A stretch of DNA of 61,553 nucleotides, filler included, from Squatina squatina (Eukaryota), in assembly GCA_031763465.1 (NCBI GenBank). It is 4 parts of 4 records of this genome, joined end to end, with 100 filler letters (N's around TTAATTAATTAA, not from the genome) between each part and the next. Parts side by side here need not be neighbours in the genome. Positions count along the whole stretch, not along the records: positions 1 to 19,732 come from JARFOE010000234.1; 3 more parts are not named here. One strand, 5' to 3'. Shown here piece by piece: positions 38 to 17,565 of the stretch (its first letter is position 1; each line of letters begins with the position of its first letter). A program made the position numbers and the translations under genes. The notes below the pieces were generated by a model. It was not told the origin of the DNA and ran no database searches. It saw only the letters and a program-made list of their open reading frames with translations.

Positions 38-176
38 TTCTTTCGATGGGTTCAAAAGGAATCTAACTGCACCATGTAACGAAGATTGCGGGTGTACAAA
101 AAAGAACTTCAACCCAGTCTGTGGGTCTGATGGTATCACCTACCTGTCCCCATGTTTTGCAGGATGTACTGACAAG
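38..176 (+). CDS. SLCO3A1: SLCO3A/OATP3A-type organic anion transporter, internal exon (Kazal-like extracellular loop)
   Basis: Polypyrimidine tract with AG at 36-37 and donor aag|gtgagc at 177. Translates SFDGFKRNLTAPCNEDCGCTKKNFNPVCGSDGITYLSPCFAGCTDK, the OATP Kazal-like motif PVCGxDGxTYxSxCxAGC. The symbol indicates the subfamily; this may be a paralog. Confidence 0.9.
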
Positions 177-1799
177 GTGAGCATATTCTTCTTCCATACT
201 CTTTTATATTCTTATGTTTTAAACACGGAAAAGAAAGTTTCCTGCTAATAGGATCAGTTGAGCACAGTGTTAATTAAAGGCAGAACACACGTCAGTTAGG
301 ACGTTTCGGCCTGCACAGTATGGCACACAATCATTTTGATTTGCACCTTAAGACCGGGTGAGACCATGACTACCTTTGCGGATGTTATGCCAGGTCCCGA
401 CTGAGAGACAAGGGGCTAGGTCTTGACTTTACGCGGTAGTGTAAAATGGGTGATAGCAAATCAGCAGCTTGTTTTACATCTCTCCTAATTTTTGTTTCCA
501 TGGTATAGCATCTGCATAACAATGCCTCATCTTACCAGGCATTCCTCCCCTAAACAAGTGGAAATGGGGTCCCCTGGGGTTGTGAACCCGGGAGGCCAGT
601 GGAAGGGGGGGAATTGATACAGGTGGCCGCTGAGGCCATAATCCATTGTTCTTGGACGAGGAGGTGGGGTTAACCTGGCAATTCGGGGGCCAGTCATCCT
701 CCACCCACATTTCCATGGTCTGTGGTGAGGGGGTGGGTGCTGCAGATGCATGTCTGCACTGCCCAAAACACAGTCCTAGAGGGCCTGTGCGTGACCCTGT
801 GACCTTTGGTTGGAGTTCTGTGGTGGGCATGAACCCGACCAAACTCTCAAGGTCACATTTGGTGCCCAATTTTTAAAAGATTTGCTCCTAACACCAAAGT
901 TAATGGAGGCAACTAAGAGAAAGGAGAAGGCAAGATTTGAAATTGGAAAAGTGGTTAACATAGATTGTTGGACTAGTTTTTTTTTAATTTAAACTAAATT
1001 AGTAAAATAAAAATGACCCAGATAGAGAAGAAGGATTGGGCAGGGAGCCAGGTGAGTAGAGTTAAAAGGATTCAATTTTTAATTAAAATTGTATTTTACA
1101 TTATTATAGCTTAGGGTTAATATTATTGTAATGAAGCTACTTCTAACATTTTAAGTGCCTTTTTCTGTAATATTATTGCTGCTATCAGCGTTACACTGCT
1201 TGAGCTGAAAACTGTCTTGCCTTGCAACACAGTCCTTTACCTAGGCCTGATGGGAAAAAACAATTAATCTTCACAGGTCCACTAAGGTTGCAGTTCATGC
1301 NNNNNNNNNNNNNNNNNNNNNNNNNNNNNNNNNNNNNNNNNNNNNNNNNNNNNNNNNNNNNNNNNNNNNNNNNNNNNNNNNNNNNNNNNNNNNNNNNNNN
1401 CAGCATCTGAGGAGCTCATCCGTCTACCTCACCTACCTTATTTGGTGTCGGGGGAGATCCCACTGCAAGATGAGTGATACCCCCCATGTTAAAATAGTCA
1501 GAATGGCAACAAATCGAAGGGGTCAGGCAAAGGTCACTATCATTGTGAATTGGCTCTCTGCTCCAAAAGGGAGCCAATCCTGCACCTCCATCCCCACTTC
1601 ACCATTATTGATGGCTCCCATGGCCGAATAGTCCGATTTTTGCACTTTTCAAGTGGTCATCCAAAATCACTGAGACTCATAAAAATGGCTCTTCCAAGTC
1701 GCGCTCCCTGATTTAAACGTTTTTTATGCTCTCTAGACAGGGATTTATGCAGCACAAAAGGTTTGGAATGGTTCACAATGATTTTGCGCTCTAATAGAA

Positions 1800-2108
1800 A
1801 GGTCAGCACGGGTGTTAACGCCCCCAAAAAACAGGCGGCGTCACCGCCCGTTTAGCGCCCAAGGAATTGAGTGCAATTCTTTGTCAGGCAGCCATTTTGG
1901 GTGGTGCACCCTCTGATGATGTCACAGAGGCTGTTTAGCGCCCAGTGCCATGTTTCTAGCGCTCCTGAGTTAGTGCATGTTTCGCGCTGGTGCCAAACCG
2001 ATACCAATTTTGCAATTTTCAATTTAGCACCAGAAATGGGCGTTAGACCCCTAACGCCCATTCTGCACCCAATTAGTGCTAGCACTGGAGTGCCAATTGG
2101 CCACCCTT
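1800..2108. mobile_element. GC-rich non-autonomous DNA-transposon (MITE-like) fragment, family A copy 1
   Basis: Colinear with 34310-34597, e.g. gccattttgggtggtgcaccctctgatgatgtcacagaggct versus gccattttgggtgctgcaccctctgctgatgtcacggaggct, with similar right ends. Confidence 0.65.
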
Positions 2109-2469
2109 AGCCTTCTGTTATAAGGATCATGGCACAAGTACAGAACACTTGCATACAGCTAACAGTGCCACCTGTGCTTTATTCTTTCTAAGTATACATG
2201 GGTAACCTGCCATGGAGAGACTGTGCTTTTTTGTAGAAGAGTAGGGTTTTCAGTGAACTTTATAAATAGATTGTAATCATAATGCATTCAGTCATGCTTG
2301 CCAGTACCAGCTCATCTGGAACTTCTGTGTGACATTTGCTGAAAATTAAGTGTATACTGCATGGCTAATCACCCTAAGCTTTTTTACTTCATTGGTAGGC
2401 TTGGCCTCTTTTTAGTTTTGACAATATTTATTATTTAACATTCCCTTGTAACATGCTCTCCTTTCTTAG

Positions 2470-14299: not shown

Positions 14300-16544
14300 N
14301 NNNNNNNNNCCCAGGCGTGAAAGCAGCGTAGAATCAAAAAATGATCAAATGCAGTCATCTGATGTAGGCATCGAAAAGCTGTGTTCACATTGTATAACTA
14401 ACATTATAATGCAACTAAGTATATTTTACCCCTTTTACAGTAGTACTGTAAAAAATTCAAAATAATTAATTTCAGTAGGAAATGAGCAATAACGGGAGTG
14501 AGTTTGGTTTTATTGTTAGCACGCAACTGAACAGGATATAAAACATATTCAACAATTGTGAGAAGTTTGCTAGGCCCTTGCTGTATGTTAAGGCCACATT
14601 TTACACCCAATCATCACCCAGCAAAACTCATTAAAGGCATGATCTTGGAGCCCAGTAGGTATATGTGTGTTTAAGCTTCATTTTCTCAGTTTTGAAGCCA
14701 ATATATATGATTACAGTTCAGTGTAGAAAAGAGATGTCAGAGATAGAGCTAATCTGATCTTTGGTATATGAATTGTAATAAAGCATTTGCTGTTACTATT
14801 CTAGTCACCATACTTCCTCCGCCCCAAGACACCTGACATTTAGCTGAACTTTTTAAATTGTAGGCAGTATTCATATTATGATATACATAATTGAGTAATA
14901 TGAGCACTAATGATAGAAATGTTTAATGCACCATGGGTACTCCTCAGACAGTAGTTGATGTTAATAGAGGAGTGTCCACAGGGCTGCATAGTCTCTTCAC
15001 TGTTGCTGTGAAAAAATGTAACAATTAAAAATTTGTGAAAATCTCTCAGAACAAGTTACAACCTGGAGGAATGAGACTGCACAGTTTCACTTGTTCCCTT
15101 TCAGGCCCGGATTGTTTGAGTGGTATTTCAGAAACATAAATCTCGTTAATAATAAGGTACTTATGCTGCTAAGTACTAACCATAACTTTCTGCAGTGAGT
15201 TTAATTGGCAATTAATGTGCACATGCAGCAATCTCTTGAAACTCACGGAGAGGTTGAGAGCGAGCTGTCATTTTCGTGAGGCTAATTCACCGGGTAGCTC
15301 TTCCTCACCGCAAGTTGCTGGAGGATTTACACATTAATGATGAGTGTGCCATTAAACTCGCCATTATTTTACAGCACAATCTGTCCCAACAGCTGCAAAA
15401 GCCATGACGAGAGAAGGAAGACCAGATGACGGATGGTGAATTTCTCTGGATTTCACCATTCCAAATAATCAGACATTCTGTCAGGTCCTATGCCATTTTA
15501 CATTACGTACTATGTTATCTTGTGTCATTACCCAACAGTGCTGAAGGCTGTGGAAGTGACAGCAGTGGCGGAGAAGCAGTGACAATAACAACTTGCATAG
15601 GGCATTATAAATAGCGCTAGGTGGNNNNNNNNNNNNNNNNNNNNNNNNNNNNNNNNNNNNNNNNNNNNNNNNNNNNNNNNNNNNNNNNNNNNNNNNNNNN
15701 NNNNNNNNNNNNNNNNNNNNNNNNAGGGACTTGCAGATCTCCAGACAGACTTTGTTTCAAAGACAGCCTTGGTTTTATGCCTTTAAACATCTCTAATATG
15801 TATATTAGAGTGAGAGGACAGTGGATATCTCTCAGTGGATTACAAGACAGTAGTTGTGTTAAGAGGTTCCGATAAACTGTGAATAAAGCTTGAGTTACTC
15901 ATTTGAACAATAAGATTGGGCCACTGTCTTAAATGCACTAAGACACTATCTGTTACTGTTTGTATACACAATGTAGTGAATATTTTTACAATTATTTTCT
16001 TATTGTTATGATGCATTTCTGTTGCTGTTTGACAAAGCCATATGACATAGCGAACCTGAAGGAATATCGACTTTATGGCACATGGCCTGCAGAAATATTG
16101 AATTTGTGACATAGAATCTGGAGATGTATTGAATATGGAACATGGGACATGTAGTAGTTGCAGATTATTTTTTGACAGTCAGTTGCAGGAAGAATCTACT
16201 TTGTATTGGCTAGCAGCAAAATCCTAATCCTAGTTACATGTGAACTAGGACATTAAAGTAAACCCCTATAGCATATTAATCACCCATAACTTGTTTTCAA
16301 TTGCAACAATAGTCAGGGATACAGTTCCCATCTATGTTTTTTAGTTTAGTATATCTCATAGCTTCTTCTAATAAAGTAAAACTGACCTTTTTTAACTTCT
16401 ATTATTAATGTGGATGATTGTTTTTTTCTAGTTTCCTATTTCCTATCCTGAAGGCAGGGATATGATTCCATAGGTACAGCTCATCTTCTGGTACTTTTCA
16501 CAAGCAGCATTCATCATGTCTAGACAGTGAATGTTGAAATCTAT

Positions 16545-16835
16545 TTGACTGTGGGGCATCAGAGCTGAGCTTCAATGTGTCCTTATTCAATGGCCACAGG
16601 CGTACATTTTCCAAATGGGAGTGGAGAGGGAGGGTCATCACAAGAAATGATGAAGAGTGGGATTTCTGGCTGGAATTCCCTTTCCTGGACCAGAATTATT
16701 GAGACTAATTGTAATATTCCTACTTCTTCCCTGGCTAAATTCTGCTAATTTAGCACTTACTAGGATTAGAACCTGCAATTTTCCTGGTCTGCCTTGTTGG
16801 GTTCATACTAGGCAGGGCTTTGACTCCTGACCACT
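16545..16835 (-). mobile_element. Degenerate old tRNA-derived SINE-like repeat
   Basis: Degenerate reverse B-box-like ggattagaacctg followed by ttcctggtctg, with loosely similar sequence at ~59360-59550. Family not identifiable by eye. Confidence 0.35.
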
Positions 16836-17289
16836 ATCCAGTGACTCCTTTTGGAAAGTGCACCTTTGCGGATGTCAAGTGAAAAAGGGTCAGGTTCAGG
16901 CTGGTGATTCCCACAATCTAGCTCATGGATCATGAATAGCAAGGCACTGGGAGGTGGCTGATGCTCAAGAAATTGTACCAAACATAAGTCAGCATTTTCA
17001 GGATAGAAGGGAAGAAAATTTGATTGGGAATTTTATTTTTTAGATCTCAGTTANNNNNNNNNNNNNNNNNNNNNNNNNNNNNNNNNNNNNNNNNNNNNNN
17101 NNNNNNNNNNNNNNNNNNNNNNNNNNNNNNNNNNNNNNNNNNNNNNNNNNNNNTGTTGGAAACTCCTCGGCTGTTTCTGTGAAGACATAGAAAGCACGAA
17201 CACAAAAGGGAATGTTCATGACATTTGTGGAATTGCAACACAAAGGAGGTTACTCTAAGCTGTAATTATCGATATCTTTTTTTTTGCAG

Positions 17290-17565
17290 ATACTGGCTGA
17301 CAAACAAGGTTACATCAAACGACCAAGCACAGGCCTACTGATGTACACACTTGCAACTAGGTTCTGTGATGAAATCCACCTTTACGGCTACTGGCCCTTC
17401 CCGAAAGACGCAAAAGGGGCACCAGTTAAATACCACTACTACGACAACTTAAAATACAGATATTTTTCTAATGCTGGGCCACATCGAATGCCACTGGAGT
17501 TCAAAACATTAAAGTCTTTACATGACAAAGGAGCTCTGAAGTTGACAACAGGGAAATGCGTGTAA
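17290..17565 (+). CDS. ST8SIA4: ST8SIA4 terminal coding exon (sialylmotifs S, III and VS); 1-bp frameshift at ~17311
   Basis: ttttgcag| acceptor. Reads YWLTNKV, then after a frame change [32 protein letters not shown]...[26 protein letters not shown]...[15 protein letters not shown]. [20 protein letters not shown] and LTTGKC match ST8SIA4 rather than ST8SIA2. Confidence 0.93.

Follow-up and report, generated by a model that had tools for sequence, protein, structure and literature searches.

The first 19,732 positions of a 61,553-nucleotide stretch of the Squatina squatina draft genome (assembly GCA_031763465.1; four joined parts, together called the window) carry, on the plus strand, four exons of an SLCO/OATP superfamily gene and, downstream of them, a sialyltransferase gene in three pieces. 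It is very probable (roughly 0.87) that the transporter gene is not SLCO3A1 but a second SLCO3A gene, linked to ST8SIA4 in cartilaginous and non-teleost bony fishes, a gene whose likely origin is the first vertebrate genome doubling and whose product is likely a working OATP3-type exchanger. A first-pass annotation had proposed such an ohnolog, and the proposal is supported by two clades, each with cartilaginous and bony fishes, and by two paralogous gene blocks.

The assembled exons (402 of 698 residues) are 96.5% identical to a sawshark protein named 'SLCO3A1-like' and ~60% identical to true SLCO3A1, in keeping with the divergence noted in the first-pass annotation. Among the 102 matches listed for the last exon, identities are 88–97% to five chondrichthyan proteins (four named 'SLCO3A1-like'; 97% over 119 amino acids to that of Pristiophorus), 64–67% to gar, sturgeon, paddlefish, bichir, and coelacanth counterparts, and 57–61% to full-length proteins named SLCO3A1. 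OATP, Kazal_2, and MFS domains (Pfam) extend across the whole ortholog proteins, PF03137 is matched on the source contig (C234), and the proteins match solved OATPs over their full length, placing the gene in the SLCO/OATP superfamily. A motif at the border of loop 3 and transmembrane helix (TM) 6, which we take to be the OATP signature, occurs in all orthologs shown; the exon concerned is missing from the Squatina draft. Membership of OATP3 follows from 51–61% identity to OATP3A1, above the family threshold of >40%, and from a common clade [branch support by the SH-like approximate likelihood ratio test (SH-aLRT) 98–99]. OATP subfamilies are delimited at >60% identity, and the paralog lies at 60.4–61.5% in sharks and 50.8–54.7% in bony fishes. 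The window gene neither groups with tetrapod SLCO3A1 nor adjoins ST8SIA2, as an SLCO3A1 ortholog would.

A 57-row LG+G4 tree separates an SLCO3A1 clade (A; 33 rows, SH-aLRT 100) from a paralog clade (B; 17 rows, 98). Clade A comprises chondrichthyans, ray-finned fishes including 12 teleost proteins, lungfish, tetrapods, and a further Squatina gene on contig C7, while clade B comprises the window gene, 10 chondrichthyans, gar, Huso, paddlefish, two bichirs, and coelacanth. Both clades recur in a 30-row mixture-model tree (SH-aLRT 99 and 99). In approximately unbiased (AU) tests on 21 rows, a clade of all chondrichthyan SLCO3A proteins was rejected (p = 1.6e-6), as was a split paralog clade (p = 0.026). 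The duplication therefore predates the divergence of sharks and bony fishes, and a chondrichthyan-only duplication is rejected. The phylogeny that the first-pass annotation had suggested as a check thus comes out in its favor: the window protein is not the 1:1 ortholog of SLCO3A1, and the true SLCO3A1 is on C7.

In human, SLCO3A1 presumably precedes ST8SIA2 in a chromosome 15 block with FAM174B-CHD2-RGMA, and we take the chromosome 5 block of ST8SIA4 (FAM174A-CHD1-RGMB) to hold SLCO4C1/SLCO6A1 and no SLCO3 gene. Two corresponding blocks were found in Squatina, where a genome search placed a second SLCO3A last exon on C7. Three assembled exon pieces of the C7 gene are 91–97% identical to Heptranchias SLCO3A1 and 58–62% to the sawshark paralog; the pattern is reversed on C234, where six exon pieces are 94–100% identical to the sawshark paralog. 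The order on C234 is PAM (minus strand, 4149220), SLCO3A paralog, ST8SIA4, CHD1 (58 of 60 residues equal to human CHD1, PDB entry 2N39), and RGM (minus), and on C7 it is SLCO3A1, FAM174 (minus), CHD, and RGM (minus). The SLCO3A, CHD, and RGM pairs keep the same order and orientation, the arrangement of ohnologs in paralogous blocks. Both RGM genes are given no further letter because PDB searches matched RGMB chains alone and the two score alike. FAM174 was not found on C234, nor was an SLCO4C1 exon in 400 kb of that contig (46% N). That the same genome might hold a separate SLCO3A1–ST8SIA2 locus is supported as far as SLCO3A1, FAM174, CHD, and RGM on C7 are concerned, but ST8SIA2 is placed beside SLCO3A1 only in the tables of other species, and in the Squatina draft it occurs in small unplaced pieces. 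Two SLCO4-type genes were also seen in Squatina, one at G000:C162:2996478-3014039 and the other, SLCO4C1-like, in unplaced pieces L093, L094, L100, and L110. In G000:C121:374400-451139, 76 kb separate a further ST8SIA exon from an SLCO1-type exon of opposite orientation.

The gene downstream of the paralog was identified earlier as ST8SIA4, and this stands: its last exon is 95–99% identical to chondrichthyan ST8SIA4 and 71–78% to ST8SIA2, and, with two ST8SIA4 and two ST8SIA2 proteins as queries, exons 1 and 2 gave ST8SIA4 matches only, none to ST8SIA2. Linkage in other species was surveyed by looking up five paralog and five ST8SIA4 clusters. Both genes are listed for 19 elasmobranch species, and in each of these they are on sequences of equal length, whose RefSeq accessions are within 4 numbers in 12 species and within 20 in 16; such matches of length and accession point to adjacency indirectly and do not amount to coordinates. 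Equal lengths were likewise found for chimaera, gar, and Huso. Coordinates are provided by the accessible tables of Marletaz 2024 (PMC10972751). In bamboo shark (chromosome 2, supplement 6), ST8SIA4 is at 55.67 Mb, an unnamed OATP at 56.06, the SLCO4C1 ortholog at 56.39, and PAM at 56.74, and in gar (LG2) ST8SIA4, an unnamed OATP, SLCO4C1, and pam are at 30.64, 30.81, 30.91, and 31.02 Mb. SLCO4C1 is therefore a neighbor of the paralog in both species and was not replaced by it, and the idea that the paralog took its place is rejected. In the rows of the same table, chicken Z and Xenopus chromosome 1 have PAM, SLCO4C1, and ST8SIA4 with no SLCO3A in the block, and each species has one SLCO3A, beside ST8SIA2 (all 36 family rows); in Xenopus, one model number between slco4c1 and st8sia4 is without a row. 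The earlier description of the ST8SIA4 block as holding SLCO4C1 and no SLCO3 gene thus fits chicken and Xenopus, but not bamboo shark or gar.

Among jawless vertebrates, the same source lists ST8SIA2, ST8SIA4, SLCO3A1, and PAM in a row on hagfish chromosome 5, under automatic names, and PAM, SLCO3A1, and ST8SIA within 175 kb on lamprey chromosome 40. Since PAM, SLCO3A, and ST8SIA are together in both, the SLCO3A–ST8SIA link is ancestral. Expression of hagfish SLCO3A1 is highest in kidney (PMC10972751). In supplement 5 of that study, two tandem polysialyltransferase genes adjoin SLCO3A and PAM at 166.26–166.83 Mb of hagfish chromosome 5; the tandem probably arose by duplication in place and would not represent the two ohnologs of jawed vertebrates.

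The distribution of the paralog was followed in protein searches. With the gar paralog as query (best 120 of 731 matches), the ten best matches all belong to clade B, with no teleost, bowfin, lungfish, or tetrapod among them, and are followed by SLCO3A1 proteins. Among the best 150 representatives at 50% identity, of which 129 selected by length entered a tree, hagfish is the sole extra lineage grouping with OATP3. Sorting 357 proteins into A and B yielded no further named clade B member from other groups, 40 distant representatives labeled 'B' at 28–34% identity having been dropped as non-OATP3. Judged by these groupings, the clade B gene is common to chondrichthyans, gar, sturgeons, paddlefish, bichirs, and coelacanth, and it was likely lost in tetrapods plus lungfish, and in teleosts. 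The first-pass annotation is right that the Squatina lineage keeps the gene, but retention is not special to it. Loss in mammals also remains likely, but as part of a wider pattern: none of the matches listed in these searches places a tetrapod, lungfish, teleost, or bowfin protein in clade B.

The solved structures closest to the paralog are SLCO2A1 (best, E = 3e-130) and SLCO1C1. Twenty SLCO2A1 positions were mapped through buffalo SLCO2A1, one of them a His that we assume to belong to the set; Lys53 is outside the scored set. The other 19 are taken from the accessible parts of PMC12398505 and PMC13005041. Glu78, Arg561, Phe557, Asp196/197, Lys549, and Pro219 are kept in 16 of 16 clade B rows and Arg542 in 15, so that the invariant TM11 Arg and TM2 Glu and the intracellular salt-bridge gate are present. 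Arg561 and Lys549 can be read directly in the window, and the exon with Glu78 lies outside the assembled draft. Shark clade B proteins equal SLCO3A1 at 15 of the 20 pocket and gate sites; the remaining five are four like-for-like hydrophobic swaps and one Gln for Leu at 556. In bony fishes nine of 20 sites differ, and five (342, 346, 380, 533, and 556) match the SLCO2A1 residue in most rows. Leu46, Ser339, and Trp565, named as prostaglandin determinants of SLCO2A1 in the accessible parts of PMC12398505/PMC13005041, are absent from all clade B rows. At Trp565, every A and B row has Phe, in contrast to a statement in PMC13005041 that SLCO3A1 has Trp there; Trp565Phe is reported with 40% activity in the same paper. 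The paralog keeps the C-terminal ESVL tail, which serves as a PDZ ligand in human OATP3A1_V1 (PMC9479004). As described in accessible parts of that article, human OATP3A1 carries prostaglandins E1/E2, estrone-3-sulfate, dehydroepiandrosterone sulfate, thyroxine, and vasopressin, and its physiological role is unclear.

From these residues, the paralog likely encodes a working OATP3-type organic anion exchanger, which would be a 12-helix, MFS-fold, sodium-independent protein of the alternating-access kind, using the Glu78–Arg561 pair and a gate of Asp196/197 with Arg542/Lys549 (SLCO2A1 numbering). Because the shark pocket is close to that of OATP3A1, prostaglandins, steroid sulfates, and thyroxine are somewhat favored as its cargo in sharks. 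The two SLCO3A copies would probably be divided by tissue. Identity between shark and gar is 60.5% for clade B against 79.5% for SLCO3A1, and bony-fish clade B is farther from SLCO3A1; clade B therefore changed faster on the bony-fish side.

The history we propose begins with an ancestral run PAM-SLCO4C-SLCO3A-ST8SIA2/4-FAM174-CHD-RGM, which would have been doubled. One block copy would have retained SLCO3A1 and lost PAM and SLCO4C; the other would have retained everything, its own SLCO3A later being lost at least twice (lungfish plus tetrapods; teleosts; perhaps bowfin). Several results weigh against this history or limit its support. The hagfish protein falls outside both clades in free trees (SH-aLRT 93 and 84), a position that, taken alone, would make the split younger than the jawless–jawed divergence, and hagfish with B is rejected under LG+G4 (AU p = 0.009). 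Clade supports are SH-aLRT values, ST8SIA2 was not found in 200 kb of C7 with SLCO3A1 (56% N), and the absence from tetrapods and teleosts rests on protein searches, within the best 102–150 matches. The paralog is also incomplete in the Squatina draft, its last exon is interrupted, and a pattern search for the native junction of that exon gave 0 matches in the assembly. The hagfish position would suit a later parting of the two SLCO3A genes, either in the second doubling (that of jawed vertebrates) or by segmental duplication once jawless and jawed vertebrates had diverged, as would 33 columns common to A and B alone, against 7 for hagfish and B and 4 for hagfish and A. We regard this as unlikely: hagfish is a long branch, and under a mixture model (12 rows) neither hagfish with B (AU p = 0.068) nor hagfish with A (p = 0.375; 0.059 under LG+G4) is rejected. 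Furthermore, Lamb 2021 (PMC8040251), in the parts accessible, assigns RGMB, MEF2C, and SV2C to quadruplicate A and RGMA, MEF2A, and SV2B to D, with branching ((A,B),(C,D)), which makes the first doubling the point at which the RGMB block separated from that of RGMA. ST8SIA2/4 is likewise dated to that event by Harduin-Lepers 2008, whose accessible text does not mention SLCO (PMC2564942). The gene tree leaves the choice of doubling open or speaks against the first, and the published block assignment favors it; following the block evidence, the two SLCO3A genes likely parted at the first vertebrate genome doubling. A bolder version is improbable: the ST8SIA4-linked copy would be the older, pan-vertebrate SLCO3A locus, with hagfish and lamprey 'SLCO3A1' as its orthologs, and would form an unnamed subfamily ('OATP3B') lost independently in tetrapods and teleosts, its bony-fish pocket having shifted towards the prostaglandin transporter. 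The accessible table of Marletaz 2024 groups the hagfish and lamprey genes with chicken Z and gar LG2 as one first-doubling copy (PMC10972751).

Three other readings were weighed. With 1.15 million contigs, many 100-N gaps, and no single read or contig spanning both genes, scaffolding might have placed an ordinary SLCO3A1 next to ST8SIA4. Between the two are five N runs (one of 3 bases, three of 100, and one of 419), one more than the four counted earlier. Such an artefact is scarcely credible and is rejected, as C7 carries the true SLCO3A1, the window gene falls among 'SLCO3A1-like' proteins in the trees, and the linkage is seen again in independent assemblies of chromosome scale, in 19 of 19 other elasmobranchs and in gar; the linkage check proposed in the first-pass annotation therefore speaks for true adjacency. 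A real shark paralog might instead have become a recent pseudogene in Squatina, through insertion of a long interspersed nuclear element (LINE; the repeat class is our assumption) at the start of the last exon. There, 33 LINE-like bases abut the exon with a short shared word; they match many other contigs, where they continue as a repeat open reading frame. But the foreign piece comes from inside the repeat and abuts a 10-N gap where a contig ends, and both the acceptor AG (4370–4371) and the first four exon bases survive, which makes an assembly error likelier than an insertion. All six assembled exon pieces are open, contigs from relatives have an intact frame at the start of this exon (three of four runs), and the adjoining ST8SIA4 has a one-base flaw of its own, as expected of a rough draft, so that a pseudogene is very unlikely. 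ST8SIA4 lacks 570 coding bases in the draft, and at 17309 it has one T fewer, shifting the frame before the sialylmotifs; the extra T is present in three of three covering runs of relatives, and the deletion is probably an assembly error. A changed cargo, most marked in bony fishes and without overlap with OATP3A1, is possible but doubtful. The faster evolution of clade B and the nine altered bony-fish sites are in its favor, but shark proteins differ at five sites alone, the prostaglandin determinants are missing throughout clade B, and faster change is also compatible with relaxed selection before loss.

Positions 1–19732 equal G000:C234:4201474 onward in every letter, N runs included, so the N runs in the window are assembly gaps. 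The four SLCO exons have AG/GT ends, the last closing at the stop codon, and are joined at these GT..AG sites by contigs from three of four runs (three studies); for the exon at 2470 this holds for the joints on both sides. The runs are from related organisms, and their RNA status is a guess supported by the spliced joints. The 3′ untranslated region is ~1.8 kb in the relatives' contigs, and it is kept at ~94% over 2 kb in related organisms. ST8SIA4 exon 1 is spliced to 14187 in one run (X9), and the CpG-rich promoter region in which it lies has a CpG observed/expected ratio of ~0.7–0.8.

Table. Features of the SLCO3A paralog and ST8SIA4 in the window
Feature	Position	Strand	Support
SLCO3A paralog, Kazal-like domain exon	38..176	+	Kazal_2 (Pfam) E=1.3e-10; 95% to sawshark paralog; spliced to 2470 in relatives
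SLCO3A paralog exon, end of extracellular domain and TM10	2470..2645	+	94% to sawshark paralog
SLCO3A paralog, 65-base TM11 exon with family-invariant Arg (R561 of SLCO2A1)	3628..3692	+	100% to sawshark paralog; column mapping
SLCO3A paralog last exon, coding part: TM12, C-tail ending ESVL, stop 4778–4780	4372..4780	+	
10 N and 33 bases of LINE-like repeat replacing 16 coding bases, probable assembly error	4376..4418	+	
3′ untranslated region of SLCO3A paralog	4781..6545	+	AATAAA at 6536; relatives' spliced contigs reach 6494–6545
ST8SIA4 exon 1, ATG at 12681, CpG-rich promoter region	12584..12787	+	92% to shark ST8SIA4
ST8SIA4 exon 2, cut by N gap	14187..14299	+	78–81% to shark ST8SIA4
ST8SIA4 last coding exon	17290..17565	+	99% to Mustelus ST8SIA4

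Elsewhere in the window, a gap-split open frame on the minus strand of the second part (21932–22751) reads like what we take to be FBXL4 and has no Pfam match. In the fourth part, a coiled-coil-like open frame of 924 codons with gaps (51119–53893 and 60055–60297), presumably AKAP9-like, also has no Pfam match; a low-complexity repeat array follows at ~54090–57430.

For specialists there is little surprise in a further ohnolog, as sharks, gar, and coelacanth retain many that mammals lost. OATP3 has been treated as a one-gene family, and a sister some 500 million years old is a natural variant for mapping cargo choice. Complementary loss from one PAM-SLCO4C-SLCO3A-ST8SIA run would explain why, in mammals, the SLCO genes next to ST8SIA2 differ from those next to ST8SIA4. 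Recognition of the paralog also settles what 'SLCO3A1-like' entries should be called in fish toxicology and physiology. The gene is already predicted by RefSeq in many species and listed unnamed in a published table. No description was met in the literature searched, subscription papers being outside its coverage; the accessible text of PMC7693511 mentions teleost slco3a1a beside st8sia2 and no other SLCO3A, and bioRxiv 2024.06.28.601146 and the readable supplements of PMC10927551, as far as accessible, add nothing.

Orthologs of the window gene include the RefSeq 'SLCO3A1-like' entries XP_038661114.1 (catshark), XP_069043373.1 (gar), and XP_064412519.1 (coelacanth), automatic predictions silent on paralog name, history, and function; some true SLCO3A1 copies (for example P0297, P0034, and teleost duplicates) bear the '-like' label too. 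Teleosts likewise have a second OATP3 gene per genome, slco3a1a/b, which we take to be zebrafish Oatp3a1/Oatp3a2. However, all 12 teleost proteins fall inside clade A, so these are younger duplicates of SLCO3A1 and not the window gene. In the accessible table of Marletaz 2024 (PMC10972751), the unnamed rows ENSLOCG00000009080 and Chipu0008486 are further orthologs of the window gene. SLCO2A1 (PDB entries 8KGI and 9QZO; accessible parts of PMC12398505 and PMC13005041) has Glu78, Arg561, Phe557, Asp196/197, and Lys549 in common with the paralog, but the two are 39% identical and Leu46, Ser339, and Trp565 are not shared. The closest known relative is SLCO3A1/OATP3A1 of the human 15q26 block, the sister clade, which has the same exon boundaries where both are assembled, shares the gate, pocket core, extracellular cysteines, and ESVL tail, and likewise lies upstream of a polysialyltransferase gene. 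In contrast to SLCO3A1, to which it is 60–61% identical in sharks and 51–55% in bony fishes, the paralog has Gln for Leu at SLCO2A1 position 556 and adjoins ST8SIA4, SLCO4C1, and PAM.

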